Assembly: GCA_015680685.1 (NCBI GenBank)
Contig: MNCI01002379.1
Coordinates: 318,780 to 382,779, forward strand
Origin: Gnetum montanum
Taxonomy: Eukaryota > Plantae > Gnetophyta
DNA length: 64,000 nucleotides
Direction of reading: 5' to 3'
Positions within the stretch are counted from its first letter, which is position 1. Each line of letters opens with the position of its first letter. The position numbers and the translations under genes are program-made. Below, one piece after another: positions 33,332-63,990 of this stretch. The notes under the pieces were generated by a model. That model had not been told where the DNA came from. It worked only from the letters and a program-made list of their open reading frames with translations, and ran no database searches.

Positions 33332-33337
33332 ATTTAC

Positions 33338-34973: not shown

Positions 34974-37900
34974 CATTACAATGAAGCATTTTAGGATGGA
35001 TAGGAAGACCTGGACTCCCACTCCGAAAGTGGTGGCCAGACCTATGCTATAGTTATCCCTTCCACCATTGTCTTTTGGTCGAACCTGCTCTTTTCATCTA
35101 CCCCCTTCATGGTTACCACAACCCCACCACAACCTACACCTTTGTCAGCCATGGGTAGCCATCTCATACATTCAACATACCAGAAAGTGGACCCTTTAAC
35201 TTCTTTCCCAGTCACCCTTCCTTCTTAGTCTACCTTGACATTATACCCAACATCAGTCACAACTACACTGCCATACATCCACACTCTTCCCATGTCACAG
35301 TCGCATGCAAACTTCATCTCTAGCCCCTCGTCTGTGCCTATTCCACCACTAGGAGCAGACCCAGCCTCAACCATGCGGTGGGCACCAACTACTTCTTTCC
35401 CTACTGCGCAACCTTCTCTAATATAGCACTACATGCAACCCTATGCACACTAGCTTCTGCACATAGTATAGTCGAACACAGGGTTGTGGGCTACCCTGCC
35501 AATAGGTCAAGTTACCAACCCCACAGTGCCACCAGTGACTGCAGCCCCAACAGCACCACCCACTGGGTGGTGGACTACTTAGGCAACACCATTTGTAGGA
35601 GTAGCCCCAACAACACCCCCAATGGGCTAGACCGCTGCCCTTACAATGCCACCAATGATGCCTGATCAGGAAAGCTTGCAATCATTTGCAATGTTCCCAT
35701 GTCTAGATCAAGCTTTTCAACTTATCTAGACCCTCACTAAGGAAATTAAATGCCTCAAAGCTATTGGTTCTGACACGATACAGGTCATGGATTTTTACCA
35801 TGATGACCCCATCAACTCATCCATCCCCATGCTTACGTTGCCTCCTGGGGTGCCACTTCCTCAAATCAAAAAATACAATAGGGAGGGCGATCCCAATTCA
35901 CATTTGATAACATTTAGATCTAAATCTCTACTATTGCAACAACAGCCACACACCATCATCCATGTCTTTTCCATGTCTCTAATAGGCAAAGCTCTAGACT
36001 GGTACCAAGTGCTCCCACATGCCTCCATCTCAATCTTGGAGGAGCTGTTGAGTCAGTTCGTGACCTACTTCAAGTATAACTTGAAACCAAAGGTCACACT
36101 AGACTGACTAATGAGTGTCAAACAGGACCCACTAGAATTTGTACAAAGGTTCATATAGCAGTGGAGCACCACCTTAAACGAGATACGTGAGCCGATCATT
36201 AAGGCTCACATATTAGCCATTTTCAAGGGAGTAGTAAATGACTTCATCAAGTCTAAGCTCTATTACCTAGCTCTACGTTCCCTTAGCCAAGCCTTTGCTC
36301 AAACCAAGAGCATTTAGGATGCAACTGAGGCTAGAAAATACCTAGCTTATGTCATGTACAAAAACGTACACCTTAAGAAAGACAAAGAGAAGGGCAATAA
36401 TGCAATAGCCATAGTGGCTGTTGTGGCCAACAAGGCCAAGCCTGACAATAGCAACAACAAAAAGGCAGCCACATAACCTGCTAACACCACATCTAGCTCA
36501 AGTAACACCAGTCAACCCTTAACATTAGCACCTAAGGCATCAACCTAGCCTAAGCCCAACTTCAAGTGCAAGGATCGCTCCAAATACACCCCTTTACCCA
36601 TTAAGCCTTTAGAACTTCTAAAGTAACTATTGGGAGCTAGGTATATATAACATAAATGGATATCGGAGGAAGCGATTAAACATCATCAATGCTACTGAGA
36701 ACTTCTTAGGGACCCCTCCATGGCCACGCCCAATGAGCTGCCAATTCCTAAGAACTTCAGGGTGGAACGGTTCTGTGATTACCATCAACTATGTGGTCAT
36801 GATACGGACTACTTTTAGCATTGAAAGAAAATATCCAATGCATGATCGATCAGGGCAAGTTGTTCTTGGACAAAATTAGCCCTGTTCGCCCTAAAAACTA
36901 GTCAATGCACATTTACAAGGACCTCCTGAATGCTAACAATGTAGGGTACATAATCAATGTTATTGGCATTGACAGCAACCCAGAACCACCACAGCAACCA
37001 TTCATGGTGTGTGTGCCTCACCATAACGTAGCAACCCCAACAACAACAAAAATCACATCACAACAATCGTTCATCCTCAAAGTTTCCTCTTAGACATCCA
37101 CCCCTACGCCCTTTGTGCTCAAAGTTGCACCATCGCATGCACCAGCACCACAGGCACCATTCGTCATTAAGGTGCCAAAACATTCAAGCACCTCTACTAC
37201 ACAAAGCCAAGCAACGAAAATGGCACCATAGCCTCCCCATTCAAAAAATGGGAAGAGGGTTGGGCAAACAAGATGGCCAAAGAATGCACCACCTTAGGTC
37301 CCTCCAAGCCTACTCCCTTGTCTTCAATGCCCGTGGCCCCATCATCATCAACAACCCATAATAATGCCACGCAGGCACAATCATCACCATCCCACCAGAG
37401 AAAGCATAGTCCTCAACTTGAAACTGCCCCTCCTTGGGAGATTCATCTCCTAGGATGAATGGAGGAGGAAATAGGTAACAAACAACAAGATAGCAAACAA
37501 GATCTTCTCAATGCCCTCACCCAAGTTAAATAGGCTTTGAAATAGAAAAGTACAACTCTGAGCCTATATGACTTGGTAATGACTTCCACCGTGCACCATG
37601 AGGCCATGGTTCACATGTTACCATCCATACCAGTTGACAAAAACATGCCAGTAGAGGAGAAAGAAATCCACATTGTCATGCTTCCCTCTACAGTTGAGGA
37701 ACCATGGCTAGCTCAGTTGACATTTCATGATAAGTCCATTAAGGATGACCCTAAAAATGGTTAGGTGACAACAATTTCCATGTTCATCATAATTCAAGTT
37801 GACCAATACAAGATCCAAAGGGTACACGTTGATACAAATGTCATTCCATTCCCCATAGTGGATAAACTAGGTTTGGTTGATCAAATCAAGCCCATGGCAA

Positions 37901-38403
37901 CCTCTTGCCTAAAATTGTTCAACGGAGTGTGGGTACTAGTAAAGGGAACTATCCACATCAACTTTGTGGTAGGGGAATAGTTCCCTACAAGTGCAATGTT
38001 CATCATGGTAGAAGAAATTCCTAGGTTCAACTTGATCTTGCAAATGTTATGGTTAGTCCAATTAAGAGTTTTCTCTTCACCCATACATCAAGAGATCCAC
38101 TTACCTTATGCGGGCAGGGAAGTGATGATCTACGGTGACGAAGTGGCTACCCAAGCAATAAACAACGTTGACATAGAGTAGGGCTCAAAGGTAGTAATCT
38201 CTAAAAACAAAGCATCTATTCTTAATGAAATTACTTGTTTGACTAATGAGCTGGCCAAAAATGCTGACTCAGACAAAGAAACTACATGGGCCAAGTTGCC
38301 TTCCCAGGAAGTAGACAATGCCATAAAAGAGTACCGTAACAAAGCCCCTTGGCCATATGCTTCACCTAGCCCACAATGGGTTAGAAAGAAACTACATAAT
38401 TAG
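34974..38403 (+). pseudogene. gag: Remainder of element C gag and protease
   Basis: KYNREGDPNSHL...GKALDWYQ, FCDYHQLCGHDTDY, IQRVHVD, FNLILQMLWL; ends WVRKKLHN*. Confidence 0.88.
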
Positions 38404-38679: not shown

Positions 38680-38860
38680 GAGATGGCCTTAAACTACCAT
38701 TTTGGCCTGCTAAGGCCTAAAAATGGCCACTCCATTTCTCCAAACAAAATAAAAAAAATATTTTATCATTAATCAATGGTCCAAATGGCCTTAAACTATT
38801 GTTGTGGCCGAAAATGGCCTTAAATTATTGTTGCAGCTTGAAATGGCCTAAAACTAAAAC
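38680..38860. repeat. Short ATGGCCTTAAACTA repeats after the C protease
   Basis: Four to five copies visible. Confidence 0.7.
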
Positions 38861-42000: not shown

Positions 42001-43752
42001 CAAGCCCATGTTGTCCTATAATGCCAACACGCATATTCCTGGTAGAGGAGAACTCTTGCAGGGCCGTTTGGGCCAACGCCAAGGCATCCGTGTCACCGTG
42101 AAGACCATTCTTGTCAATATAAAACCTAGACACATAAGAATAATGTAAGCCCTTTTGACTAGAGCAAGGCAAATCATACAACATGTTTAAAACATCTTCA
42201 CAGGTTTCACCTGTTAGCATAATAAATGGTTCTAGGTGGGTTTTGAAAATAGGTGCCCATGTGACGGGTGACGTACAACGTATTGTATAGATGGTAGGAT
42301 TTGTATTCAAGAATTTCCCATATCCAACTTAGGTGCCTCAAGCCCCTTGGACATTGGTCTGAGCCTCCTGCCCCTTCACCCTGGGCAACAATGTTTCTTT
42401 AAGTACAATCATTATCTCAGCTAATAAGTGTGACCACACAATCACACTAAAATGATGGAGGAGGAACTCTAGGAACTCCTGTGCACCCTCGTGAAACCAG
42501 ATTGCTTGCTCCCTTACCCGCACATGGGGTGGGGGGCATTAGCTACAAGTTCGCTAAGGTAGCATAGGACTCCTACCACCTCAAGGATGATCAGGACGAG
42601 CTTCAATATGATCCTACATGACAAAGCGCCAAACGTTAGCATTATGTCCAAGTGATGATTACTGATATAGCGTAGCATGATCATCTATTTGCATATAGCA
42701 TAGTGTGACCCTCTATTTATGTATAGCATAGCATGACCCCCCTTGTTTACATGTAGTGTAGCGTTATCCTCTAGTTACATTGCATACAGGATAGCAAAAT
42801 TTCATGTGTAGTATAGCATAGCAGTTAAGCCCTGTGTAGTGTAACAATAGTGGGTACACCCCACAGTGTGATAGTTACATGTTACACAACACAAAGTAAT
42901 AAATATACCTAATATAGCACAATGTAATAGTTACACTTTCACATAAGGGTGATGGCTACGTTACATGCAGCGTAGCAAGACGAATGCACTGCATGCAACA
43001 TAGTAAATGAACAAGCACAAGTAGACATGTAAGAATGTAACAAGCAGAACACTGCAACAGGTGTCACAACATAGCAAATCTGGCAGTATAGTAAATTTAA
43101 CAGCATAGCAACGTTACAAGTTTACTACCATAGCAATGTGACAAACTACCAACATAATGGCTTAAGGGCCTCACAACATAGTAGCATAGCATAACAACAA
43201 CAATGTTATAGTCTAACCACATAGATGAAAAGGAATTGATAGTGCCCCCATCATCCCAACCCTACCCTACCTCATGAAATAGCTCGCCCTACACTATGCA
43301 AAACATGTGTCATGCTGCCGCAAAACTTTGCAAAGAAACAAACCCCTCTAAGGGTGGTATGCTATGCCAAGCATGCAATACACTGCCCAGAACTGCCCAA
43401 ACCCCTATGATAACATAGTCACCATTCCTAACAATGGCAACCAGAGCAGGACTACATGCAGCTGTAGCGTACCACCTGTATAGCCACTGCAACCAAGTGG
43501 CGACAACCATGGCGTAACAGCCAAAATGGCAACAAAAATAGTGACAATATTTGCAAAAATAACAACAATAATGGCAATGGTAATCTAACCACGTGCATCA
43601 CATAATGGAAACAAGGGTAGCATAACAACTTACCGAGCTGACAGAGCCTCTTGTCACACCTCAATGCATGCCTTGGATAGGCATCCCAGAGTGTCCCTCA
43701 CCTTGTTCACCTTGGCCAGTCCCCGATGCTTGTGTTTGCCTTTACACACCAT
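39031..43752 (-). pseudogene. Antisense multi-exon accessory gene of element C
   Basis: Exon 1 43752-43634 (MVCKGKHK...CG|GTAAGT); exon 2 LKLVLIILEVVGVL...WFHEGAQEFLEFLLHHFSVIVWSH; coiled coil LWKRVQKLEKEK; NWANLTEEEILRRL. Confidence 0.8.
42660..43200. repeat. Dense CAGCGTAGCA-derived repeats in intron 1 of the C accessory gene
   Basis: Many tagcgtagca/tagcatagca/cagcgtagca copies. Confidence 0.75.
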
Positions 43753-44059: not shown

Positions 44060-44410
44060 GCAAAGACCTTAAACTAGTAATGTTAACCTACAATATAGCC
44101 TAGTAACAGTCTACAAAAACCTTAAACTAGCAAACTTAACCTATAGTGTGGTCCATATGACGATCCGCAAAGACCTTAAACTAGCAATTTTAACCCACAA
44201 TACAGTACCACCACAGTCCACAAAGACCTTAAACTAATAACGTTAACCTATGATACATCCCAATGATGGTCCACCATGACCTTAAACTAGCAATTTTAAC
44301 ATTAGTTTCACATTTTAAGCCCAATTACGGTCTGCCATGACATTCATTTTACATTTTAAGACCAAACTATTACATTATTAGGGTCCACAAAGACCTTAAA
44401 CTAGCAATTA
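44060..44410. repeat. About 52-bp tandem repeat (AAAGACCTTAAACTAGCAA...) upstream of the C RT
   Basis: At least six copies of gaccttaaacta. Confidence 0.85.
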
Positions 44411-44517: not shown

Positions 44518-47500
44518 ATGGCTATGCATGGTGATCTTTGTTCACCTTTGACCTTAACAGGTCCCTATGGAAAGTTTACAAGGTGCTTGTGTCAAGAATT
44601 GGTAGACTTTGAATCATCCTCTCACAACATCGTAGCATGCATGGAAACATCCCTAGACTGGCCCAAACATTTGGTCCAAGCCTTAGACTTAGAGGCTGGG
44701 GATGTAACTGAGGACCCTCTCACTGAAATCCCCGTAACTACCACCAGAGGTGAAGCAAAAACCCTAAAAGTTAGCTCTTTGTTACATCCATAGGTACACC
44801 AAAACATCTCAAGAGTTCTCCATGATAATGTTAAAGTGTTTGCATGGTCAGATGATTACATGCTAGGCTTTGACCCACGACTCATACAGCACAACATTAT
44901 CCTAGATCCACGTGTCAAAGTAGTTAAGAAAAAAGCTCGTAAAATCAAACCAAAGATTGCACTAGTTGTACGCAATGAAATCACCAAGCTTTATCAAGCT
45001 AGTTTCATTCTGGGTGGTCGATTACTCGAAATGGGTATCGAACATTATTGTAGTTTCTAAGAAAATAGGAGGTATATGAAATTGTATAGACTTTTGAGAC
45101 TTGAACAAAGTAATGCTTAAGGATGACTTCCCATTACCAAGTATCAATCAACTTATAGACACTATGGTTGTTGAAGCCTTACTGTCATTCATGGATGGGT
45201 TCTCAGGCTATAACCAGATTTGTATAAACCTGAAGCATTAGTTCTCAACCACTTTCATGACCTGTTGGGGAACCTTTTATTATGCAATGATCCCCTTTGG
45301 ACTCAATAATGCTGGATAAACCTACCAACGAGTGATGACATACATTTTTAGTGACTACCTTTTGGAGAGATTGAATGATTACATCGATGATATAGCAGTC
45401 AAGTCTAAGGAAGCTATTGAAAATCCTAATGATCTTAATATAGTCCTCTAATGTTGTCAAAGGCATGACCTACACCTCAACCCTAAGAAATGTGTTTTCA
45501 AAGTTAAAATCAGACACATGCTATGTTTTGTAGTATCGAAAATAGGAATATGAGTGGACCTCGATAAAGTGAGGGCCATCATCAACTTAGCACTGCCTAC
45601 AAACCTTAAAGAGCTACATGGGTTGCAAGGCAGAGTACAACTTATCAAAAGGTTTATCACAAGGTTGATGGACAAGCTACACCCCATGCAACACCTACTC
45701 AAAAAGGGGATCAACTTTGAGTGGACAGATCAATGTCAACAAGCCTTTGATAACCTAAAGAAAGAGCTTTTGCATATCCCAACTATTTACCCACCACAGA
45801 GGGATAAGCCTTTCTATATCTACCTTGCCACTTCAGACATATCTATTGCTACGTTGCTATGTCAAAAAAGAGATGACAGGTCTAAAATCTCGATCTACTA
45901 CTTAAGCCATGCATTAATAGCTTATGAGGGAAAATACAATGAAGTAGAAAAATATTGTCTCACCCAAGTGTTTTCACTAAAAAATTAGAGACATTACCTA
46001 TTTTGTAGCAAAGTCAACATCATATGCAAGAGCAACATACTTTGGGTTATCACAACAAACTTGTACGAGAGTAGTAGGATAGCCCGATGGAAAGCTATAA
46101 TGGTGGAATTCAATTTACATTATGTAGCTCAATCATCAACAAAGGGTCAAGCAATAGCCACACAGCTTACAACTTCACCCGTTGATGATTGGACAATAAT
46201 AGAACCCAAATTCCTTGATGAACACATCAATAGCCTAAGCCCTATGCCATCTGATTTCGAAGCAACTTTACATTTTCAACCACACAAGGTGAAAGCACTG
46301 TCATACTTATTACGTTTCCCTCTGAGGAAATTCAACCCTTTGCATATCACTTTATGTTCCTTTGTATGAACAATGTAGTTGAGTATGAAGGACTCCTGAG
46401 GATCCTCTTAGTAGCCTAAGAGCTAAAGATCCAACATTTGGCAGTTCAAGGCGACTCACAATTAGTTGTTAACTAGATCACTGAAGTCTATGCTTGCAAG
46501 GCTTTGCATTTGCAACCTTATTGTGATCTAGCTAAGAGTTTACTAAAACAGTTTACAATGTTAGACGTTCAACATGTGCCTCATAACAAGAACACCATAG
46601 CCGATGCACTAGCCATGTTAGCATTGAATGTGCCATCGCCCATGTTTGTAACTTTCCTTGCTTCGATAATAGAATGCATAGATCATATTCCTCAAGTGGT
46701 GCAGATCGCATCTGTCATTGCGAAAGATATCCAAGAATGGTATGCCAACTTTAAAGATTACCTTTAACATGGCAAACCCCCACATGGCTTGACATCCACT
46801 CAAAAGGATGCAATCTGAAAACGAGCCTAGCAATATGTCCTCATAGGAGATAACACCTTATGCAAACACTCCTTTGATGGGATATTGCTAACTTGCATTG
46901 TTGGGGAAGAAGCATAGAAAATTGTTAACAAAGTCCATGAGGAACTATGTGGAGGACACATAGCCCCTAGGGCTATGGAAGCAAAACTCAGATGCCTATG
47001 GTACTACTAGCCTTACATCGAATAAGATTTCCTTGCCAGAGTTAGTACATGTGATGTATGTCAACGCCATGCAAATCTCATACATGTGTCACCTACTACG
47101 TTACATCCTACATAGATCACGTGGCCATTCCAATGATGGGGACTGGACATCATAGGACCCATCATGCCTAAGTCTTCCACAGGTCATAGCTTTATCATCA
47201 CTACAACTAAATATTTCACAAAATGGGTGAAGCTATTCCCCTAAGGAAGACTACATCTCATCAGGCTTGCCACTTTATCTTGGATAACATAGTAATAAGA
47301 TTTGGTCTTCCCATAACTATTGTAACAAACAATGGGCCATAATTTAGTAGCATGGAAACCAAAACCTTTTGTGACATCCTTAGCATCAAGCACTCCTTTT
47401 CATCATCATACTACCCACAAGCAAATGGTCAAGAAGAGGCAACAAACAAATCCATCATCAACCTACTCAAAAAGATGCTCAGTAGTAGTAAGAGGCTATG

Positions 47501-47900
47501 GCATGAGCAAATCCTCTACGTGTTGTGGGCTTACTGTACGACATGCCAAATAGCTACAGGTAAGATCCTATATAGTCTTATTTATGGATTTGAAGCAGTG
47601 TTACCTCTTGAATTGTACGTTCCATCACTTAGAATGATCCTTTCAAACATTTTGGAAAAGGCTTAGAACAACAAGTCAAGGGTCATCGATCTTGACTTTG
47701 TAGAGGAGGAGTGTGCTGAACACTTGATCGCATCGAACGGTACTAAGACAAGCAATGACAAAAGCACCACTATAATATACATCAATGTCCAATCAAGAAG
47801 GGGGACCTAGTCCTCAAGGCTATTCATGAGTATGTAAAAAAATTCTCAGCCAACTGGGAAGGCCCTTTCATAGTCATGAAAGCCTATGAGAACGAGGCGT
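44518..47900 (+). pseudogene. pol: pol of element C (RT-RH-aRH-INT), end in gap 47902-48110
   Basis: MDGFSGYNQ, YIDD, KPFYIYLATSD, YYPQANGQEEA, WEGPF. Confidence 0.93.
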
Positions 47901-48826
47901 TNNNNNNNNNNNNNNNNNNNNNNNNNNNNNNNNNNNNNNNNNNNNNNNNNNNNNNNNNNNNNNNNNNNNNNNNNNNNNNNNNNNNNNNNNNNNNNNNNNN
48001 NNNNNNNNNNNNNNNNNNNNNNNNNNNNNNNNNNNNNNNNNNNNNNNNNNNNNNNNNNNNNNNNNNNNNNNNNNNNNNNNNNNNNNNNNNNNNNNNNNNN
48101 NNNNNNNNNNACCCTATGAACAAGTGAGCATGCACACTCTTAATATCCCTAGACAACATGGGATGGGACATTGCAATTCCAGAATGTAGTTCACATTGCT
48201 AAGAAAAAACTCTCTAGAACACATGCAACATCACCACCCTTGGCATCTTGCTGATCTTCCGGAGATATCATTTAGCATCTTACTAACCTTTTGGAGCTAC
48301 TGCTACCATAGCCACTCATCCTAGCAGTACCTCTTACTGTCAGTACCTGCTGCTAGAGTCCTAGCACTATTTTGGCTTAGCCACAAGTATGCCACCCTTC
48401 AGCCCTCACCATTTTCTGAGCCACAAGGATGTTCAACTGTTAGGCCTTTCACCTTGCAACTAGACTACATGATGCTTGCATTAGGTAAGGAATCCTAAGC
48501 ATCTGCATCATCACTACTTCTAGTCTCTTCAATGCCACCCTTCCCAGCCTACCATGGCTAAGATCTGTGTTGGCCTTCCTTCTTTGGACTTCGCACACCT
48601 CAGCAACAATATTTTCCATTCCAGTGGTGTCTAAAGCAAGCAGGACTTCACTCCCACTTCACTTTATGGTTTTTTTTCTAGTTTTCTCTCTGTTATATTT
48701 GTAGGATACAAGCCAAGATGGCATCGTTCAGAGATGCGTTTCACCAAGAAAGCCAATGCACTACATTGCTTCAAAGTCTTCACTTCAATTAACCTCGTTG
48801 CTTAAGAGTACATGTCCTATTCTCCT

Positions 48827-50548
48827 TGTACTGACCGAAATATTCAGTGTAAGGCTAGAAGGGAAAAAAAACAAACATCGAAAGATTGTCAGATAAACAC
48901 AACTGACCCTGCCTTTGCATGAGGGCACATTGGAAAGAAAAATAAAGGCAGAGTTCCTTGGATGGTCTACACGCAAATCAACCAAGGACTTCCCTGAACA
49001 TAAGCTACAGCTTGCGCTGGGGTTATCATAACTGATGTTCGGAATGCAAATAGTAATGTACAAAATGCAAAAAGCACATATACAGAAATATATTGTAGAG
49101 AAAGCATAAACTAAATTTAAAATAAGTAAACAATATAATAGAAGGAAAAATGGACTGTATTGTATTGCTTAGAATGAATGTGCACTGGTCAAAGTGTAGT
49201 TACATGTGTGTGGATGGCAAATCAAGCACAAAGCCATAGGGTGATATGCTTGTAAGTGCTTGGATGCTAGGAGTCAGGTGTGCTTGAGTGTCCAAAAGTT
49301 GCTAGTCAGTGTTTCCTAAGCCGTCAACCTTCAAAATTGCCAACCTTGTTTACGTGAATTGACAAGGTATTTATAGGGTTTAGCTAAGCTCGGGTGCAAA
49401 ACTCATGGATGGAATCAATGGCTAAGAGATGAGAGGAAAATAGATCATGTGACATGTGTGCAATGGACAGTTGTATGTGAGTTGGACACGCACGAGCAAG
49501 CTACGTTTTTGACTAGATCCACCATATCTTACAGCATGTGTTTGGCTTACACAAGCTAACTTACACTTATGGAAGTAGATGCAATATTGGAGCATAAGAG
49601 CTTGACGAGATCACAAATGATGAAAATTTACAATAAAAATGATAATGTACAACAAGATAGATCAGCTCCATCTCACTTGAAACTTGTCAATCCTTGAATT
49701 GTTGCAGGATGTCGATTCGAGTGGTTTTGTGGCTATTTGAGGCATCTCTATTTAACCAGTACTTCTAGCATGAGTGGATTTTGTCTTGGCATGTTCTTAG
49801 CATGAGTTTGTTGTGCTTTCGACTGAGCGTGATCAGTACTCATGCTACACTCACGTTGCTAGCATGAGTGAGCCAAAAATGACATATTTCACACTAAGTT
49901 TTGATTTTTGAAGCATGTTTCCTAAGTATAGAAATTTCTTAACTATGGTTGACCTTAAGAGTGATTTGAAATCAAAAATTAAGCTTGATGTGTCTTGATT
50001 TAAGCCACTTTTGATAGCTCACGCTAGACTCATGTTGCCAGTGTGAGTGCAACATGACCACAACGTGAGCTGCAAAAACTTGCAATTTTGGACCTGAAAT
50101 CTAGAATTCTGGAGACTGGAACTTGAATTTGTCAATAATGAACCCTGAGGACAACTTGCACCTTGGAATTCAAATCATTTCAACTCAATTTTAAGATTTT
50201 CAAAATTGGTCACGCTATACTCACGGTGCCAACGTGACCTCAGCGTGAGTTAGAAAATTTATGCCATTTGACCCTAAATTTGAATTCCTAAATGCTGATA
50301 CTTGAATTGGACACAACAGTGACCCTTAAGAATGACTTGCACCCTCAGATTGAACCACCTTTAACTTAGTTTTGAGGATTTGGAGTTGCTCACGTTGAGG
50401 GCAAGCTAGCTTGACAATGTGAGAAAGCTGGCTTGAGCAAGCTGAGCATGAGTTCCATGCCTTAGTAAAATTTTTACTTCCCAAAAGCTAAAAAAGGCTC
50501 TAGGTTGTTTTCATTTTGAAGTGTTAGGCCGAAATTGGTGGTTTTTCA
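48827..50548 (-). mobile_element. Solo LTR of the B family in the 3' UTR of element C
   Basis: TG...CA, full-length alignment to the B LTRs, TSD CTCCT/CTCCC, no adjacent PBS or PPT. Confidence 0.9.
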
Positions 50549-51223: not shown

Positions 51224-51236
51224 AAAGAGGGGCCAC
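51224..51236 (+). promoter_or_regulatory. Polypurine tract of element C
   Basis: AAAGAGGGGCCAC directly before TGAAACACC. Confidence 0.85.
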
Positions 51237-51914
51237 TGAAACACCATAAATTTCAGGACTCTCATGATTCAATAGTCCCAAAATGTGGGCAAGGATCCCC
51301 ACAAGCATCATGTCATGCTAGACCATGAATATAATTCCCTCTGCAACACAGTCAACATGGCATCCAACCACAAGGCCAGTTTGCATGAAAGGGGTACTAG
51401 GGGTAAACTGTACAGTCTGGTAAGTTTTCTCTCTCTAGGTCTGATAGGCTTGTTAAACTCTCTAGCTTGCCCAACTTGGCACTTGACCCAGCTAATGGTC
51501 TACCTAGGGACCATGCTAGGAGTTGCTGAAAGTGCTCAGGATGAACGAAACAGCTCGGCAAGTTCTCTAACTATGAGACTTGCTATGCTACACTACGTTG
51601 AACAGTGTAGTAGGCCTCAAGGAGACTAATTACACTGAAAGAATGTGGATTGAAAACAACTCAATCTTCTAGGACATTTTCCCCACTTCATTCTTGATGC
51701 ATGAGCAATATGACACAGCAAAAAGGTGGCAAATTTCATCAGTGTATCCTCTTCATTTTAGTGCTATGCTATGTTACGCTCCACAACAGGAGTACACTCT
51801 AACAATACTCCTACTTAGATGGCACTGATGGAGTAAGTACATTTTCCCACGCTTCAACCATCAAACCAATTTTTGCTGACACACCGACTAACATCCCGTG
51901 ACCAAACGTTTGCA
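51237..51914 (+). repeat. Truncated 3' LTR of element C
   Basis: Aligns with 13760-~14485, then switches abruptly to the RT of element E. Confidence 0.9.
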
Positions 51915-52980
51915 TGTTAGTTATTTCCTTAACCTTATTAGGGTCTACCCATATCCCCATTCCAAAGACTACGAAGCCAACATTTTTCCCATTTTGACAC
52001 CAAAGAGACACTTCTTTTGATTGAGTCTAAGGTTATACTTGAGACAATGTTTAAGCACTTGGTCTAGATCTTTAGCATGTTGTTCGATTGTTTTAGATTT
52101 AACTATGATATCATGAACATAATCATTGAGCAAATTGAGCATGTAATCACTAAATATATATGTCATTGCTCTTTGATATGTAGCGCTTGCATTTTTAAGA
52201 TCAAACGACATCATCATATAACAAAATGTGCCCCAAGGTGTTATAAAGGTTTTTCTGAGTCGATGTTTTGGATTGATTCTTATGATTGTATCCCGAGAAT
52301 CCATCCATAAAGGATAATAGTGCATGCCCAGCAGTTGTGTCAATGAGTTTATCAATGCTGGATAGCGGGAAGTCATTCTTTATAGTGGCTACATTGAGAT
52401 CACAGAAGTCAATGCATATGCGTATGCTACTGTTCTTCTTAGGAACTACAACAATTTTTGATACCCAGTCGGAATAGTCAATAGCTCGGATGAAACCAGC
52501 TTGGTAGAGCTTTGTGATTTTAGCACGGACTGCTAACACTACTTTAGGATTAACCTTTTGGTCCTTTTGCTTCACTGGTTTGATCTTTTCATTGAGAATG
52601 ATGTTGTGTTGGACGATTTGAGGGTTTAATCTTGGCATGTCAGTATATCACCACACGAATGTTTTTCTATTGTCTTTTAGTACCCAAATGATGTCACTGA
52701 CAAGTTGTGAGTCCAATAGGGCACTTAATTTCAATGTTCTATTTTCACCCTTGAATGTAGTAACAGGGACTTCAACAAGAGGATCTTCAATGATATTATC
52801 AGCCTCTAGATCTAATTTTTTAGCCATATTTTTAGGCCAATCCAACGTTTCCTGAGTGGAGGCTATTAAATTAGTATAAGTGCATGGATCTAGATCCAAG
52901 GATTTGAAATTGATTATTCTTTTTATCTCCCCATTTGGTCCACTAAGAGACAATGCTAAAAGGATATTCTTCGTGGCCAT
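51910..52980 (-). pseudogene. pol: N-terminal RT part of element E pol
   Basis: RICIDFCDLN, LLSFMDGFSGYN, TPWGTFCY, YVHDIIVKS. Confidence 0.93.
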
Positions 52981-53684
52981 GTACTTGCTCTTGCCAATTT
53001 AAATTAGGAGCAAAGTGAGTGACATTCCCTTGACGAAGGATTTACTAAATNCAGGAGCAAAGTGAGTGACATTCCCATGACGAAGGATTTACTAAATGTA
53101 AACAAGCATAGGGTAATTAAACTATGTACTGATGAAATCATGGAACGTAGCGATATTCATGGTAGTTTTAGGCTGTACCAGGCCATATGGTAGTTTTAGG
53201 TCATACCGGGCTGGTAATGTTCATGTCAATTTGTCATTTTGGATGAGTGTATAGGGCATTGTTAATTTTTTGCGAACTATAACTTTAAAGGATTTTAAAA
53301 TCTTATGGATTTTTATACGTGTCATTATGTATTCTCATATGTCTACATATGCATATTTTTTTCGTTGGTTTTAACCTTTCTCCCCTCCTTTATATAATTC
53401 TTCCTTTATTTCTAATATTTTGGCCTCGTCTCCGGAGGCTAGAATAATGAGGAATACTAGGTGTGTATGCAATAAAGATGACATAAATAATAACATGAAC
53501 ATAGTAAATTGAATGAATAAAAATAAAACTAAAAATAAATTAAATTAAGGGTGAAGATGTGGGTTAAAAAGGGATTTTGAAGTGAAGAAGGGCATCATTT
53601 GTGCTAGTGTGAGTTCTTGAACATTTGGACTGCAGTGTGAGCATCAATGTCAGCGTCAGCATCAGTGTGAGCTACAGGATAACC

Positions 53685-56600
53685 ATGAAGGGCAAAGGGA
53701 AAGCAAGTTTAGGCAAAGGAAAGAGGCAAGTAAATCTGGCATTCATGGAGGAGAGTGAAGAGCTACTCCAGCATCTCCCCCAAGCCAGGATTCCAGTATG
53801 GGATGGAACTCTATGCAGGTTCATTTCTCCTCTTTTTCTATTCAACATTTTATGTGCGTCGTTAGTAAGTGTAGCATGAGCTAGCCGTATTTTGATGACT
53901 TGCTATGTTTCTAGTATGATTTCTAGTATGATTTCGATTTTTCTATTGGATTTGCTACGTTTTCTCTCCACGTTTTCAGGGATCAGGGTTTATACTTGGA
54001 TTCATGACTTGCTGTGTTTTTGGTTCTTGTCTTTGGGGCATCATCATGAGTAATCTAGGGCATGAGTGTGAGTGAAGGGCGAGTTGAGTGCCCATCGTGA
54101 GCTAGGGCATGAGTGCCTGCTCAGCGTGAGTTCGTGCGTGAGTGTGTGTCTAATGTAAGTTGAAGCTAGGGTAATTCCCAGCGTGAGTTGAGGCAAATGT
54201 AGCATGAGCTAAGTGCCCAATGTGTGTTGGTGTGATGCTAAATGCCCAGGGTGAGCTGTAGTGTTAACTGCCTAGGCAATCCAACTATTTTCTTTCTGTG
54301 GTAGCTATTCTCTACCCCATGGTGGAAGTAAATACAGGTATGAGGGATCATCCAAAAGCGATGCTATAAGGGCTATAGGAAGGGGGGAACCACACGGTGA
54401 ATAGCACTTATGGACAGTCCCTATTAATACTACTAGCAAAGATAGCCCTTAGTTAGTTCGTGTAGCATCATGTGATCTATGCTTCCTTGCCCCCCAAGTG
54501 TATCTATCGTGCAGTCCACTCTTGTATCCTTTGGTAATGTGAGATTAATGCCCATATTTTTCTGTTCTTCGCACTCACTTTTTGAGCTAACATATATTGC
54601 AAGAAGAGTCATACTACAGTCTCTGTCGTGCTCTCATGGGCCCCTTCTATTGCTCCTAAATGGAGTCAGATCTCCAATAGCTTGGTGCAACTTACTTGAG
54701 ATAACCACAAATAAAAAAGCAATTTGGTTGAATGCACTACTCCATCTCTCAAATGCTAGTTTCTCTATGATCCCCCCTATAGGGCTAGGGAACCCTAGAT
54801 TCATATAGTAACGGGTCATCTCACTCACCCTCAGTTATAGGGGCTCACACAAATCGTTCCACTCATTTGTTCTAGGTACTCTTTCATGAGCCAAACTAGG
54901 GCATGAATGACTTGCAATGCAAGGCATAAGCTAATTGCCCAACGTGAGTTGGGGCAAACTTAGCATGAGTGTAGTTCCCAACATGAGTGGATGCTAGGAT
55001 AGTTCCCAACGTAAGCTGCCAAGGATGTCCAACGTAAGTGGATGCTAGGGTAGTTTCTTACGTAAGTTGCCAAGGATGCTAGCATGAGCTAAAACTTGAA
55101 GATGTGAATTGTTTGCTGGGATGTTCATTACTTGCTAGTTTTATGTCTATACCATTTATTATTTTCCTAAGATTGACAATTTAAACATTTTTTCAATGAG
55201 TGTTCATGTTCTATACTTGTGTGTTGATTTATTGTGAAATGGATTTCAATGTACCCTAGTGAGTGTCAAATACACTAAATAGATATCGATGTCCTTGTCT
55301 CATGCAGTGAATCTCTATATTAGATATTTTTGTATGTTTGGTTTATGTAGTGATGAATTATTTTGAGGAGTTGGACCTTTTCTTACCTATGATTTTGGCT
55401 ACATGCAGGGGGCTTAAACCTTCCCTTCTCGTGGTTGAGCTCATTGGTGTACTTGCTTGGTTTGGCCCTTTTGGACCAAGAATACCTCCGTATGATATGC
55501 ATATTGGACCTCATGTGATATGGTTCTACCCTAATTTTGGTGCATTCTTATCGTTCATTTTACAAAATTTCATCGTAATTATATGGTCTCATTTAAGTGA
55601 GCAGTTGGCACATGATATCATTGAAACCATGTTGCCGGGATCTACACAAGACATGTTTGCCTTCATTACTGACATAGATGAAGGATTTTTTACAGTTGAG
55701 GGAGGCCCTAGATCTACCCATCCCTTGAATCGTGTGTGGGAGCTACCTACTTGTAGTCATTATATCAACAACAATACACTTTTTCTATCCTTCCACGTGC
55801 ACACTCTATTCCAGAACCCACCTAGAATAGAGTGGATAGGTATGCTTTTTGTGCTTTGCTTAAATTTTGATTCCTTTAAAATTATATCGTTGTCTATGCA
55901 TAAATATCCATTTTCTATGTAGGCCTCGTTTTGATGAAAATGGGATGCATGATGATGACGGTGGGCTTGCCTTAGTGTGCACAGCATTGGAGGCATTCCT
56001 AATGGACCCATTCTTCATGCTCAAAGGCCCTTGAAAATTACCTATGCTTTGAGGGCCTTTGAGCACTACCAAGTTCATGGTTGGTTACATGAGGATTGGT
56101 CTTCTAATGGGCCAATTTTTCCTCAAAGCATTAATCCTACACCTAATGTTCCTATGCCATTTACTGATGGTAAATGATCACATCCTAGACACCATTTTCC
56201 CTTTTGTTGCATCATCATGTACTATGTTTCTAACATTTAGCTCTATGTTTCTCCTACAGCAACCATCTCTTCTAATCAAGTTACCATTATAACAAGTGGA
56301 GTAGTCACAACAATGGTTGTAGAAGAAAGCTCCTGAGTTGATCATCAGCCACTTTACCAGGGTAGGTCTGATGGACTTGTTCATTGCTTTGACTCCTAAT
56401 GTTCTGGTAATTGAGATGATCACCATTGTTGATTCTTTCAGTGATGATGCTTCCCATTTTCCTACACAAGTTTGAGGAGTCAAGGTATCTTTCCACCTGA
56501 CCACTGAGTTCCTTTCTGATCTTTTTGGCATGTCCATGGATGGTGCCAGGGTGGCCATAGATAAAGAAACTATAGAAGGCCAGGTCATAAAAGAGCTTGA

Positions 56601-59064
56601 AGAGAGGTTAGGGGTGTCTCGGTGTCCTAAAGGTTTTGGTATGCGAGATGACATTTGATTAATGGAGATGAACTTCTTGTACTCCCTTTTTCAGGAACGG
56701 GCATTTCCTAAATCTCTCTCTCAAGGAAGAAACCTTGGGATCGAGTCTGCACATGTCATACGTGTAGTCTTAGAGATGGGCATGCATTACAACTGGGCAT
56801 AGTTTCTTGGATCTGGCTTTCGTGGAGAGATTGCTAGATTATGGTCAAACATGAATGCCAAATCCCACTTCACATTTTCTTTCTTTTCGGGGTACCTACG
56901 TAGGTTTGCTAAGTTCCTAGTAGTTTATGGTGATAGCCATTATATATTGAGGGATCGTTCACAGTTGTCCTGCCCCTAGCTTTGTCATTTGTTTAGCACC
57001 ACTAGATCTCAAGACCCACCTAAACACATCGACAAATTAGTGTCTGTTACTACTGGGGGTGCAGCTAGTCGTTCCCATCATTCCCATGATAGCTTGGGAT
57101 TGGAACCGGTTGTACTACATACATCTATTAAAGGGGCTAAACATCTGATCCGTGAGACCGTTCGAAGATCTAAGGCAAAGGTGAAGAGAAATGAATGCCC
57201 AAGAAAGCCTGCCCCATAGGTGAGACCACCAAGAGGGAAGAGGATCCACTTAATACTACCAATGGAGGGTAAATATTTTATTTTATTGTTATATATTTAC
57301 ATTTTTTTCTTGTGTTTTGGTTTATATGTTATTAAACTTACATATATGCTATGTCATACTAATTCTAGGATTTTGGTGTTATTCAAAGGAAAGTCCTGAG
57401 AGGGAGAGAGAGGTCATGGCCCCGATGGTTGAACCAGAAGTGGTCATCACAGGGCCATAGGAAGAAGAAAAAGAAGAGGAATAAGTAATCAAGGAACCTT
57501 CTACCTCGCAAGAGGAATAAGTGACAAGCAACGTGGGGATGAAGCTTGCAGAGGCTTTGGATGCACTTAGGCATTCAAGTGATGAAAGAGGTGTCTTCGA
57601 TGGTTTCTTCAATGGATCTTTGCAACTTGGTGATCCACCCAAGCTAACCAGCAAAGGGCTTTTTGGTATGTTCCTTTTAGCTCAATCCATGTTTTTTTAC
57701 CTTTTACCTTTTATGAGTTATTTTTTATTATTATCTTGATTCTCCTTACCATCAAAGGTAGACGCTGAGATTTTTGAGGCACATACATCCTAGGCAGAGG
57801 TGTCAGGATCACAAGTTCCGATTGAGGTGACCTCCCCTACTTGTCCCACATCAACTGACCAACTACGTCCATGGCCTAAGATGCCTAGTAAAATGGACTT
57901 TGTCACATGTATCGTTAATGATGTGGTTGCTTGCCTACAACAAGCTCATCTAGATCTAGGTATATGTCTGTTACGTATTATGCTAAGTGTCTAGGTTTAT
58001 TGTGTTTCTTTGCTTTCATTGTTGATTATAGATGATTCATATGTGCGATACTTACACCTGTAGGTGCCAAGCTCCAATGGGATCCTTCTGAGGTAACTCA
58101 TATTTATGCCCTCCCTAAATTGTTAGGGAATATTGAGTAAGTCCCTAGAAATGTGTACGATGCATATTCTGGTTATGTCGTACAGAATGCTAAGTCGCTT
58201 TGGACTTGTAGGCATTTAGTTGAATATCTATGGGACAAGGTGCACTCATTGAAGGAAGCACTAGCAAAGGAGAGAGAGGAGAAGAGAGATCTCCAATCCC
58301 GTTATGATTTTGTTGCTACAAGGATTTCTGGTGATAGCACCTGGTGCACATCTGAAATCACCTATGTGCGTTACTAGACAATTTTGAATAGCAAAGTGTA
58401 GGTGACATGGGATTTAGCAAAACAAAGGGCACAGATGGATTTTTTGAATAGCAAATGTCACAATTGGAAATCCTTTGCTGATAAAGTACGGAAGTGGGGT
58501 CAACACCAAAAAAATCACAAGCATCAGTACAAGAAATGATTAAGGACGAGTCAATTGAACATCGCTGAATGGAAATGTTCATTGATGGGCTAGGCTTGCG
58601 TTTTGCTTACGATAGGTTTGTCGAGTGCACCGAGGTGGAGGGATCTCCCAAGAGAACCATTACTACCACTTTCAGGGAGGCTTTGACAAGCATGTTCTCT
58701 CTTGAGTGCCCTACCTGGACTTTGGTGGACAAGGGTAAAACCTTGGCTGGTATCGATCTTGGCTTGGAGGAGGATTGGGCAAATGTGGCCAAGGAGGAGA
58801 TTCTATGGCATTTGGAGGTCAGCTTAAGGCCTTCCTCACTTATGAGTGTTTTATCATGGCACTTATTTTTGTATGGTTTTATTAATTTTATTGTTAGTGT
58901 TACTGTTTTTCTTGGTTTTTCATTCATGATTTGCTTTGTTACTCTTACATGTTTTTTTGTTTTTTTTTTTTGCTCTAGTATAGGGACATGTTAATGATGG
59001 AGCTGGCCCCAGTGGAGCGAGAGTGGGTGATGAAGAGGATCTTGGGGACCAGCCCCCTCCATGA
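53685..59064 (+). pseudogene. Antisense accessory gene of element E; about 8 exons (53685-53818, 55409-55839, 55923-56169, 56260-57268, ~57389-57665, ~57758-57959, 58063-58816, 58984-59064)
   Basis: GT-AG bounded AT/T-rich introns at the same positions as in B; the exon1-exon2 join is in frame; later boundaries approximate. Confidence 0.82.
54281..54890. other. Unidentified ~600-bp segment in intron 1 of the E accessory gene
   Basis: Absent from the B intron and lacks the surrounding CAGCGTGAG repeats; boundaries uncertain. Confidence 0.4.
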
Positions 59065-59584
59065 GCTTATTGTTAATCAGGATTTTACTATTAAATGTTC
59101 AGATTTTTGGATGTTTAATGGAGATATATGATGGACAGATGTAATGACATGGATCTAATTATGGCATAATGTGTTGGAATTTTGTCACCATATTGACATT
59201 CAGTATTCTTTATTTTTACATGTTTTCTCTTTTTTATTTGTTTTCTCAAGTATTATCGTGATCATATGCGTCTAATGAATGTAAAATGAGAGAATAAAAC
59301 ATGAATAAAATATTTGTAAAAAAGGAAAGTAATGAGAAGGCATGAATCGAAATTATAACTTGTAACTTGTAAATGGAAATTTAATGTAACATAACAAGAG
59401 TTCATGAATTTGTAACTTGTTGGCTCTATTTTAAAGCAATTTCGGGCCATGTGCATCAGTTTAAAGTAATGATGGACTATCACATCTATGTTAACAAAAG
59501 AAGGATTGCCAGTTTTAGGCCATAGTGGGCTAAAAGAAATAACAATTAGGGAGCTTTAAAAGGAACCAGCCATTTCTGACTGTG

Positions 59585-59705
59585 GCTAGTTTAACGTCAT
59601 TGCGTACGTTCGTTGGCAGTTTAACATCGTACCAAACGACTGGTAGTTTAACGTCATTTTGGACAGTTGGTAATTTAACGTCATTCTGGACAAATGGTAA
59701 TTCGT
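59585..59705. repeat. 23-31 bp tandem (TAGTTTAACGTC) right after the gag-PR stop; equivalent at 29398-29480 in B
   Basis: Four copies visible. Confidence 0.8.
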
Positions 59706-59706
59706 C

Positions 59707-62700
59707 CTAATTAATGAGTTTCTTATTAATCCTTCGTAGCTTGATGTGAGGGGTAGGCCATGTAGGCACAATCTTATACTCACCTTCCCCTTCACTAGTG
59801 ACGTCAAAGGGTAGCTCCGACCAAGAGACATCAGTAGGAATGGCTCCTATGTCTGTGTTGTACGGTGCTTCCTTAGTTTTAGTAGGATCATGAGTTATCA
59901 TTGGGTTCATATCTTGAAGTATACCCATGGTTTCTTATTTAAGATCAGAGAATTCAATTTCTAGCCCTTGCTCCATTTCAAAGTGCGAGGAAGTAAGTGA
60001 TTCTGTTGTGTCCCCATGTATGATGATCTCACCACCCTCATAAGGTAGATGGATCTCTTGATGGATCAGTGAAGATACAGCTCTAAGTTGAGCTAGCCAA
60101 GGATGTCCTAGAATTAGATTACACCCTGGCATTTCATCGACCACTATGAATTCAGACGATGTGGGGAATTCGTCCCCTGCTATAAAATCCAAGGTAACCA
60201 TGCCTTTCACTACGACACGAGAACCACTGAAGGATTTTAAGAATGAAGTCGTTGTGGGCTGTATTTGCTCTGTGAGCCCCAGTTTCTCGATGACAGGGAA
60301 GGGTATTACATTCGTTGCCGTGTCGTCATCGACATGCACCCTACATATCTTGAAATGGTTAACTTATATTTTTATGAACATAAGGGCTGTAGTAACCTCT
60401 CCCATTTTCTCATCTCGCTTGATGTCATTAGTTCGAAACTCTAGGGATGTGGTTCTTGGTTCTTAAGGTTGTGGGAACAATACTGCATAAATGAATGGCT
60501 CATCTGCAAGAAGGTCCTCACTAACAAGAATTGAAGTTAACATACGCACAAAAGCCTCTTGATGTATAGTTGAAGTCATTACCAAATCATACAGTCTTAA
60601 GGAAGTATTCTTTTGTTTCAAAGCCTATGTTACTTGGGTCAATGCACTCACTAGATCTTTACCATTTGGGGCACTTTTTTCTGTGAAGACTTGGTCCATT
60701 TGACCTAGCATTCGTATCTCTCATGGATGGATTTTTGCATTAGCAACTGGGGATGTTGAGTTTGGGACCCTAGGAGTACTAATATTCTTGTCCTAGTGAC
60801 TTGTGCTAGGCTCACTAGTGGACGGACTCATAGGAATAGCATTTAACGTATGGGATTTGGTGGTCCTACTTCATACACACAACATTCCTTCTCTAGGCAC
60901 TCTTGTGTCAACTTGTCAGCAAGATGCTCTCACAGGGGACTCAGGGGAATGGTAGGGGTTGCACATCAGGGTGTTCCGACACCCAAATCACAAAGGGAAT
61001 GGGCCAGGTTTTTGATGGTGTGGTTGCTACTGCAACAAAAGGGGGTATGCGGATGATGAATGGTTTTTGTGGCATAGGGAACATGTGTATGAAGAAAGGA
61101 GTTTGAGGAGGTGTTGAGGTAGGTGTATTTTCATAGGGCTTGCAGATTACAAAAGGTTTTCACGAGACGTCCTATCCGTTCTCCACATGGATAGTGTTAA
61201 TCACATATGGTGCATCATTAGTATTGAGAGGGTCTTTATAGACTCCCATGGGTTGGTTTTGGGGCCTTACTGGGTTTTCCTAGTCAAATACTATTTCACC
61301 CCTATCGATCATGCATTATATGTCCTATTTTAAGATGAAGCAATAGTCAGTTCCATGCCCACACCGTTGGTTATATTCACAAAACCTATCTAACATAAAG
61401 CCTCTTGGAATGAGGGGCTCATTAGCTGTTGCTAAAGTTGGGTTCTTGGCCAACTCACAGAATCGATCATGTTTTTGGGACGCCATAGGGAATATTTGTT
61501 TATGTTTGATTAGCCTGGCCTTTAGAAGTTTATCTACAATTGTGAAGGTTTCACAGGCAAGGATGTATACTCGGTTGGATCCTTTCATTTGAATGTACTA
61601 GTGTGACTTGCGTTGATGTTTTTATTTGAGGAGGACTCGAGTCTAGGCATAGGTCAAGTTCTTTCATGGCTGATTGGAGTGGCGAGCTATTTTCCTCTTT
61701 GTCTTGGATGACTAGTTTGGGCCATCTCTACCACCTCTACTACCATTTTTTTGGATTTATCCTTATCTTTCCTCATATGTTGGCTCCTAAAAGTTGAGTA
61801 AGCTAGGTCATTGCTTGTTTATGTCGCCTCTTCTATGTTCTTAATTTGTACGAATGCTTGGCTCAATGTATGGACACTCAAATAATAAAGCTTCAATTTA
61901 ATAAAGTCATTCATGAATGCTTTAAGGATGGTAAGCATATATGTTTCAGGGATGGGACCGTGAAGTTTATTGAGAGCTGCACTCCACCTTTGGATAAATT
62001 TTTGCACTGGTTCTAACGGTGCTTTTTTGATCTGAATCAAGCTATCCAATTTGGCTTCAGACTTTAGATTATATTTAAAATAGGTAATGAACTGATGTAA
62101 CAAATCTTCTAGGGAGGATATGGAGTTACAGGGTAAAGCTCAGTACCAGTCTAGGGCTTTTCCCGTTAGGGACATAGAAAATACACGTAGAACTACATGA
62201 GGCTAGGCTTGAAGCAATAGACACTCTAGATGAAATGTTACTAGATGGGCACTTGGATCTCTCTCTCCATTGTACTTGGTTAGTTGAGTCAGTGAGATTC
62301 CCTTCGGAAAGGTTAATGGTAGGACTGAATGGTGGATTGGGTCGTTTTGATAGAAGTCTAGCACCTTGATTTCCTCAATGTTTGTAGTTTTAAGGCACTT
62401 TAACTCCTCAATTAATGAGTGCATCATTTTTTTTGTGTCTACCCATTCTTGGGTAGTAGGCAGACCAGTGGGTTGAATGGATTGTGATTAGTAGTAATTC
62501 GACTGTTGTATTATTTGTGGAAAGGGGGACTGTTGGATCACCGGTTATGGTGGAGCAACATTTAGAGATGAGACTGTAAGGTGTGGTATGTTGTAGTGAG
62601 TAAATTAGTGTTGCTGAATAGCTGGTGGAACCCACTGCCTAGCCACAAGTTGTGAGGTGACACCCTGAATGTGTTGGGTTGAAGTAATCAATGGTGCTCC

Positions 62701-63390
62701 ATGGGCTTGCACTTGTGGTATGTAATGGGTGGACATGGAAACTGGTATAACTGATGGCATCCCAATTATTTGAGGTTGGAAGGTTGATCCTACATTAGCT
62801 TGAGGAGGAGGTTGTCAGGGCTACATTTGCGAAGGTATGATGAAAGTGGACGTATCAAATTAACTATTGGGCATGGAGAAGGTGTGAATGGAAGTGGGTA
62901 CTTCTTGTCAGGAAACTGGTGCTCGAGTGTTTGTAGATGAAGGCAGAAGCATAGTTTCTTCTAGAAAAGGCTGGAATAATGGGTTTGTATGGGCATGGGG
63001 ACTGATGGTATCGTATGAATCTCCATGTTCAGATTGGGCTACAAAGTCATCTACCTCATCTCCACTCTAAGGTTCTATCAGAGGTGGCTGTAAAGCTTGA
63101 CTCCTTGCCATAAGAAGTTGAGATATAAGTTAGTGATGGTGTTCAGAAATGGGGATTATATAAAATGCCAAGGAAGTGAACTCATGACCTCCTTTGTAAA
63201 TAAGTTCATAGTTTCGTTTCGCTTCTCTCTCTACACGATCGATAGGCAGGTTAGCCTGAATTTTCACATAGATGAAGTTATATTGTTCAGGTGTGAGAGT
63301 TGCATAAGTAGGGTCTTTGCCTTGTAGCCTAAGTGACTAGCACATAGGACCTTGAGAGTTTATCTATTCGATAATATTTATGGATTCCAT
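59707..63390 (-). pseudogene. gag: gag-protease of element E
   Basis: KYNGERDPSAHL, FCEYNQRCGHGTDYC, HVDDD...NLILGHPWL; ends RRINKKLIN*. Confidence 0.9.
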
Positions 63391-63519
63391 AGCAGTCACA
63401 GGGTTCAAAGATTTAGCCCCAAAGTTAGAGATTGGCAATGTCACTATGTTGATCTGGGAAGATTCCATAGTGAACGTGAATAAACTGGGCTAGATGAGTT
63501 AAGCGTGTGTAAGCTAGGT

Positions 63520-63990
63520 GGTCAAGTTAGCATGAGTAACTGACAACATTAGCAAGCTGACAGCATGAGTAACTGACAGTGTGAGTAACTGATAGCATAA
63601 GCAGCTGACAGTGTTAGTAAGATGATAGCATGAGCAAGCTGACAGCATGAGTAACTGACAACATTAGCAAGCTGATAGCGTGAGTAACTGATAGCATAAG
63701 CAGCTTACAGTGTTAATAAGATGATAGCGTGAGCAAGCTGACAGCATGAGTAACTGACAACGTAAGCAACTGATAGTGTAAGCAGGCTGATAGCATGAGT
63801 AACTAACAGCGTAAGCAGCTGATAGCATTAGTAAGATGACAACTTAAGCAAGCTAATAGCATAAGCAATTGACAGCATTAGTAAACTAATAGCGTAAGCA
63901 GCTGACAGCGTGAGCAAGCTAATAGCGTGAGTAAGCTAATAGAATGAATAAACTAAGCTTAGCATGAGTAAGTCAAGCTAAGCATGTGTA
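63520..63990. repeat. 16-17 bp minisatellite (CTGACAGCGTGAGYAA-like) in the 5' UTR of E
   Basis: More than 20 copies such as ctgacagcatgagtaa and gctgacagcgtgagcaa. Confidence 0.92.

Follow-up and report, generated by a model that had tools for sequence, protein, structure and literature searches.

The window, the whole stretch of DNA analyzed here, is 64,000 nucleotides of Gnetum montanum and carries four elements, named E1 to E4 from left to right, which by their domain order are Ogre/Retand-like Tat LTR retrotransposons. Their accessory gene is multi-exon, runs antisense to gag-pol, and fills the spacer between gag-protease and RT; its second exon encodes an FCP1/NIF-type domain, and the exon under study is the E4 copy. 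Exon ends in E4 were taken from GT/AG signals only, except at intron 1, and the predicted accessory protein comes to roughly 1000 codons. E4 contains:

51900 to 52980, reverse strand: first part of the RT ORF, which opens with its own ATG near 52980 and is cut short downstream
53685 to 53818, forward strand: exon 1, with an ATG and a Lys/Arg-rich start (MKGKGKASLGKGKR), in frame with exon 2 over intron 53819-55408
55409 to 55839, forward strand: exon 2, FCP1/NIF-type pseudo-phosphatase domain by alignment (motif I Glu at 55437-55439, motif II WSH, motif III His, motif IV SF)
55923 to 56169, forward strand: predicted exon 3, with AG/GT ends, conserved between E2 and E3; by eye it extends the C-terminal helices of the NIF domain
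56260 to 57268, forward strand: predicted exon 4, a domain of ~330 aa, broken by stops and a deletion
57369 to 59100, forward strand: predicted exons 5-8, an acidic linker and a coiled-coil-like stretch at 58141-58374 (by eye)
59585 to 59684, reverse strand: AYGWYSTTAAACTA array, just after the gag-protease stop
59707 to 62500, reverse strand: gag and protease, recognized by motif and cross-copy homology, with no Pfam match; stop near 59707

Retrotransposons around the accessory gene

The other elements contribute the following coding regions:

about 10380 to 13600, forward strand: RT-RH-aRH-INT of E1, with RVT_3 at 11710-12180
16710 to 34968, reverse strand: E2, a complete 18.3-kb element with LTRs at 16710-18298 and 33338-34968, TSD CATCT, gag-protease, antisense accessory gene and RT-RH-aRH-INT
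22403 to 22852, 21382 to 21699 and 20326 to 20709, reverse strand: RVT_1, RVT_3/RNase_H and rve of E2, with aRH between RH and INT
35730 to 38400, forward strand: gag-protease of E3, by motif and cross-copy homology
44518 to 47900, forward strand: RT-RH-aRH-INT of E3, collinear

The claim that the domain is carried by an LTR element is borne out by E2, in which LTRs and TSD are both present. A TG..CA LTR pair, a 5-bp TSD and a PBS-like site were found in E2 only; its LTRs have diverged to a K2P of 0.16, and the PBS-like site, at about 33316-33332 after the 5' LTR, is presumably complementary to plant tRNA-Asn. The accessible text of PMC6317226 gives a tRNA-Asn primer for 2% of elements. No tRNA genes were found in the window.

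GAG-PROT and RT are separate ORFs, with a stop after the protease and an independent RT ATG in E2 (23395), E3 (44518) and E4 (52980), preceded within a few bases by a candidate AG acceptor in E2 and E4. The distance from protease to RT is about 6-7 kb in these three elements (quoted below as about 6.7 kb), raising the question of how RT is expressed across such a spacer; either splicing or an internal promoter may account for it. In E1 the accessory gene stands in the same relation to RT, with gag outside the window, and its position and orientation are the same in all four elements, which represent three lineages (E1, E3 and E2/E4). This antisense placement goes beyond the original reading.

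Several other features of the window are recorded here in their own right. A GC-rich (53-67%) block at 5800-7960 in the E1 spacer, with a 397-aa stop-free frame on the reverse strand (6642-7835) that has no Pfam match, is probably a separate insertion. A degenerate tandem array with 16-, 33- and 66-bp periods lies upstream of the E4 gag (63528-63984), and at the truncated end of E4 are a third LTR of E2 type, 74% identical (48825-50300), and a block in common with 13759-14485 (51236-52092).

The non-coding DNA also contains a 14-bp motif, AYGWYSTTAAACTA(G/C)C, whose arrays follow the gag-protease stop, precede RT and follow INT; every one has the sense of the element. Besides the E4 array above, these are:

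29270 to 29472, 38683 to 38798 and 44063 to 44403, gag-pol sense: AYGWYSTTAAACTA arrays in non-coding parts
53191, 19529 and 19735, gag-pol sense: single AYGWYSTTAAACTA copies, non-coding

There are 18 matches against 0.29 expected for a pattern that was chosen after it had been seen; in an unbiased 9-mer count, TAAACTAGC is the top word common to the non-coding DNA of E3 and that of E2/E4. The E1 non-coding DNA inside the window has no array of the motif. The AYGWYSTTAAACTA(G/C)C arrays are a candidate cis-element common to divergent elements.

RNA reads from four runs under the same species label (2-26% of each used) were aligned to 51900-63400 at 80% likeness. They are few, and nearly all are less than 95% alike, representing related copies (80-95% identical) and not the E4 locus itself. 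A joint from 53795 to 55406, its length that of the predicted in-frame GT-AG splice, is present in six reads of run X16 and five of X17; a second joint, to 55435, has five reads in X17. In the two oligo-dT runs coverage of the exons is unbroken and drops almost to zero over 53820-54971, which makes up most of intron 1. In related copies exon 1 is spliced to exon 2. RNA depth is highest at 58428-59195. At the low depth available, none of the four listed joints spans the protease-RT spacer.

Two further observations concern the RNA. At 53746-53812 the oligo-dT runs are more than 700 reads deep, in reads that match only that part of exon 1 and continue into unlike sequence, possibly the accessory transcript of another subfamily or a non-autonomous derivative. 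In runs X13 and X14, over 58428-63400, the gag-protease reads share mate orientation with those at the 3' end of the accessory gene, which, depending on library strandedness, may hint at antisense RNA across gag.

The FCP1/NIF-type exon and its catalytic residues

The E4 exon (55410-55838, forward strand) reads GLKPSLLVVELIGVL...WFYP...FLSFILQNFIVIIWSH...PLNRVWELP...YINNNTLFL...LFQNPP through 143 codons without a stop, and its limits at 55409 and 55839 are an AG acceptor and a GT donor. The sequence originally read at this position holds, except that the segment given as WF(R)P is WFYP, not WFRP, in the E4 copy. The equivalents expected elsewhere in the window were recovered by tblastn as three paralogues: 25163-25600 on the forward strand in E2 (73%), 3168-2749 on the reverse strand in E1 (34%), and 42535-42231 on the reverse strand in E3, split over two frames (E 8e-8 and 4e-6). 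The exons containing them are:

2722 to 3174, reverse strand: putative NIF pseudo-phosphatase exon of E1, one stop
25162 to 25611, forward strand: putative NIF pseudo-phosphatase exon of E2, two in-frame stops
42210 to 42613, reverse strand: putative NIF pseudo-phosphatase exon of E3, two frame breaks

The E4 exon is 7 nt shorter than the copy at 25.1 kb (E2), near 55823, and its last few codons are out of frame. Exon 4 contains 6-8 stops in every copy; all four copies are therefore old, broken insertions.

Profile and database comparisons identify exon 55409-55839 and its three paralogues as homologous to a plant/algal FCP1/NIF (HAD) subfamily. The original prediction looked to Pfam NIF and to Foldseek. 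The Pfam profile (PF03031) matches the E1 and E2 exons at 16.1-17.3 bits (E 0.004-0.009), under its gathering score of 21.8, and does not match the E4 exon; Foldseek does return FCP-fold proteins, for the model built with host sequences described below. A phmmer search of 1.84 billion representatives gave nine matches at E <= 0.001, seven of them NIF proteins (E 7e-5 to 9e-4), six of which span most of the query length; those with a named source come from plants and algae. Two repeat proteins (P0001 and P0004), matched on short stretches only, make up the rest and were dropped. NIF accounts for 29 of 30 matches in the ESM Atlas (best score 0.91), and comparison of three element copies with ten host domains by hhalign yielded a probability of 98.95 (E 9.9e-18, 138 columns). 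When the window was searched in six frames with a profile made from 10 host NIF domains only, the four exons matched (E 8e-13, 7e-12, 3e-11 and 3e-5) and nothing else did under E 3.5, the best match in the reversed window being at E 0.9; because the profile finds just these four exons, the NIF likeness is not due to chance. The predicted FCP1/NIF-type HAD domain is upheld by the last four of these comparisons.

Among solved structures, the best match of an element-only profile to the PDB is UBLCP1 (E 0.03); a PDB sequence search with the E1 exon alone found no match. The fold model made from three element copies alone has a pLDDT of 40 and is unusable, and the one made with 42 host rows of 45 reaches 80 but is not independent of the alignment. 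With the latter model, again not independent of the alignment, Foldseek places CTDNEP1, SCP1-3, UBLCP1, Fcp1 and TIM50 within about 40-fold of each other in E-value, with a TM of up to 0.66, for UBLCP1. A quick-search tree of 76 rows, from which E3 was left out, has the three element copies on one long branch (2.49) and names no donor. P0013 was dropped from the alignment on being found not to be a NIF domain, and viral NIF phosphatases, which match the model at 11-18% identity, were not taken as donors. A word-indexed homologue search with the NIF exon (6 candidates) found nothing, and no related loci were found in metagenome or viral contigs.

Residues were mapped by sequence alignment against 73 distinct host domains. 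Motif I is ELIG, ELIG, ELVG and EVVG in the four copies: at the nucleophile, position 10, all 65 host domains with a letter there have Asp and all four copies have Glu, as originally described, and the +2 residue, Asn in 59 of 65 host domains, is Ile or Val in all four. The motif II Ser is kept (WSH in 4/4 copies). Motif III position 104, Lys in 73/73 host domains, has become Arg in three copies (E1, E2, E3) and His in the fourth, E4. The DD motif is missing, as had also been noted: host domains have D127 (73/73) and D128 (68/73), and the copies are all non-acidic (SF, AF, SH, TR). Position 132, Lys in 68 of 73 host domains, is T in two and M in one of the three copies compared (E1, E2 and E4). 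Residues kept from the core are L6, G13, F46, F54, W59, S60, L106, T123, L124 and N136. E3, read through its frame breaks, agrees in lacking the catalytic residues, so that the proposed catalytically dead state extends to four copies of four in the window.

Mg-dependent catalysis by HAD enzymes needs the motif Asp residues; by this established chemistry the domain, as aligned here, cannot be a Mg-dependent phosphatase. SCP1-type enzymes require DXDX(T/V), according to the accessible text of PMC4261519. Caution is due as to the activity of the donor: already in the host subfamily the +2 residue is Asn, and the second Asp of motif IV is absent from 5 of 65 complete host domains. Partly degenerate domains are present in host genes as well, the second domain of the tandem NIF proteins P0002 and P0005 being without that residue. 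A literature search with four Arabidopsis identifiers for this family found no title on its biochemistry.

The reading preferred here, at a probability of roughly 0.55, is that the NIF domain is the binding module, no longer catalytic, of a nuclear regulator that the element encodes. A more specific version has it reading, or acting as a decoy for, the phosphorylated CTD of RNA polymerase II and so protecting that tail from the host's CTD phosphatases. In favor of this, Foldseek ranks SCP1-3 and Fcp1 near the top, motif II still has its Ser and motif III a basic residue, and the D96N form of SCP1 is inactive and described as dominant negative (PMC4261519, accessible text); however, the closest sequences are those of the DxNG subfamily and UBLCP1, not SCP/FCP1/CPL, and identity to SCP1 is only 12-16% in structural alignments. 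This version is accordingly improbable, and the CTD part of the original proposal of a captured phospho-CTD or phosphoprotein reader or decoy is not specifically supported.

Across the four copies 30 of 130 positions are invariant, in lineages only 32-39% identical. Ser60 is one of these; Glu10, His61 and Phe134 are invariant as well and occur in no host domain (position 61 is His in 0 of 69). One possibility is that Glu10, Ser60, His61 and Arg104 together make up a novel active site that needs no metal: the first three are unchanged in 4/4 copies and His61 is peculiar to the elements, but every Mg-binding acid is gone and no precedent was found in the literature, making a new enzyme very unlikely.

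Selection and a possible role

Between E2 and E4, dN/dS in the NIF exon is 0.17 (95% bootstrap 0.09-0.29; 137 codons, one pair); elsewhere in the same two elements, protease has 0.21, gag 0.28 and exon 4 0.37. Among frame controls, ratios of 1.36-2.04 came from the two forward shifts and from two of the three reverse frames; the remaining reverse frame, whose third positions coincide with those of the exon, gave 0.28, as expected. The RT value was set aside because frame breaks make it invalid, as were comparisons with E1 because synonymous sites are saturated. These ratios indicate that the dead NIF exon is under purifying selection and that the domain is apparently functional: since neither E2 nor E4 has the catalytic residues, constraint acted on the dead form, after the loss, and since post-insertion decay pushes dN/dS towards 1, the value of 0.17 is conservative.

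For the preferred reading, a non-catalytic binding module, the old active-site pocket would be re-used and not merely decaying, given the invariance of Glu10, Ser60 and His61 in lineages so far apart and the change of motif III Lys to Arg in three of four copies. Against this, E4, the copy under study, has His there and not Arg. The HAD fold has an Asp-Lys salt bridge, which Glu10 and Arg104 could simply preserve, leaving the pocket structural. The corresponding alternative is a plain scaffold, in which the dead domain serves only as a folded spacer, or as a surface for contacts within the protein or in an oligomer, with nothing bound in the old pocket. The invariant positions lie mostly in the hydrophobic core and are common to the host, the D-to-E and K-to-R changes are conservative and could keep a buried salt bridge, and motif IV has been replaced by varied non-acidic residues; the element-specific invariants E10, H61, W38-F39, E72-T73 and F134-Q135 argue instead for a selected surface, as does a lower dN/dS in the NIF exon than in exon 4. 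On balance a scaffold seems unlikely, though less so than a CTD reader.

A chance-captured host gene fragment, decaying as a neutral passenger, might also be considered, since gymnosperm genomes are reported to hold ~400,000 captured gene fragments each (PMC13477047, accessible text) and all four copies are broken. Such a fragment would not be expected to hold one position and orientation in four elements of three lineages, to have a dN/dS of 0.17, or to be spliced in frame to an element-borne exon; this explanation is already largely refuted, and barely credible.

If the NIF domain is indeed a binding module, the following history and role can be proposed. An ancestral element would have captured a host gene of the DxNG NIF subfamily. 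Its antisense orientation would let the introns survive retrotransposition, as an intron-bearing gene would persist in a retroelement only when antisense to the genomic RNA. Its product would be a protein of ~1000 aa with a basic N-terminus, the pseudo-phosphatase, a helical domain and a coiled-coil-like end; it would be nuclear, probably oligomeric, and would bind a host protein through the NIF domain. It would then act on the element's own TAAACTAGC arrays and promote element expression, as reported or proposed for VANC-type and other accessory factors. In this way it would help the element exploit or escape gene control by the host.

This DNA-target step is weaker than the binding-module reading. 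The exon 4 domain, 34-39% identical across lineages, presumably resembles PMD or Transposase_32-type domains, as judged by eye, and any VANC/PMD analogy rests on that resemblance. No Pfam match to PMD, Transposase_28 or a related family was found in any of the four copies, nor any PDB match by profile, and a word-indexed homologue search (1005 candidates) was empty. In the fullest form of the idea, an undescribed Tat lineage would encode a trans-acting regulator of its own within the enlarged protease-RT spacer, with the captured HAD pseudo-phosphatase reading a phospho-mark of the host and a PMD/VANC-like DNA-binding domain directing the protein to the TAAACTAGC arrays. This form is doubtful; if true, it would be a retrotransposon anti-silencing system convergent with the host PMD-phosphatase module, built on an unrelated phosphatase fold.

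Comparison with known systems

The nearest relatives of the element copies are the DxNG NIF host proteins (KAG8366963.1 from Buddleja, KAM0004709.1 from Helianthus, and those of Sphagnum and Mantoniella), an uncharacterized subfamily. They have the same motif order and spacing over 138 columns at 26-34% identity, with the core kept; they also keep D10, K104 and D127, whereas the element copies keep none of these and have the domain fused into an element protein. UBLCP1 (PDB 3SHQ), SCP1-3, CTDNEP1, Fcp1 and TIM50, of HAD/FCP fold, match the host-assisted model of the element domain in Foldseek, and none is element-borne; TIM50 is a non-canonical member of this fold in cells.

Where the extra genes of plant Tat/Ogre retrotransposons come from and what they do has been called enigmatic (PMC4408406, PMC7264820; accessible text). 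The accessory gene described here has a traceable donor family and a biochemical signature, with catalysis apparently lost and the fold under selection that seems as strong as in protease, and so offers a direct way to test how retrotransposons engage the phospho-regulation of their host. The observation is real and not an artefact, and it is unusual in the domain, in its dead-but-selected state and in its position. Ogre and Retand have the order RT-RH-aRH-INT (PMC6317226) and Tat elements a protease fused to gag (PMC4408406), as far as the accessible texts go; the present elements are like Ogre/Retand in both respects, and in having a GAG-PROT/RT spacer and an antisense accessory gene with a coiled-coil-like end. 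The Ogre spacer, however, averages 274 bp and is an intron (PMC6317226, accessible text), while that found here extends over about 6.7 kb and accommodates a spliced, NIF-encoding gene. The extra ORFs of described Tat elements carry PMD, Transposase_28 or Athila ORF-1 and are located 5' of gag or 3' of pol (PMC4408406, PMC6317226, PMC7264820, PMC11963269; accessible text); the present gene differs in lying, spliced and antisense, between protease and RT, and its exon 4 has no PMD or Transposase_28 match in any copy. The literature searched, which excluded most subscription papers, had no report of a retrotransposon with a NIF/FCP1 domain or with an antisense gene between gag and pol, and the supplements of PMC6317226 that were available, possibly an incomplete set, have no NIF or phosphatase term.

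Capture of host enzyme domains has precedents. Orchid Gypsy elements have captured an active AlkB demethylase, and 15 extra domains are reported from 121 angiosperm genomes, NIF not being named in the section on extra domains (PMC9289625, accessible text). Both AlkB and the present case are host enzyme domains fixed in a large Ty3/gypsy lineage, but AlkB is active and the NIF domain is without catalytic residues. VANC is reported as derived from MAIN-like proteins (PMC13547354), PMD proteins (MAIN/MAIL1) pair with PP7-type phosphatases such as PP7L (PMC7156037), and a PMD-phosphatase module is described for MAIL3 (10.1101/2024.09.27.615353), all from the accessible parts of these sources. The likeness to the present gene lies in a captured host-like domain in a transposon accessory protein, or in a phosphatase paired with PMD in transposon control; the differences are that PP7/PP7L are PPP metallophosphatases in host genes, not HAD proteins, and that VANC belongs to DNA transposons.
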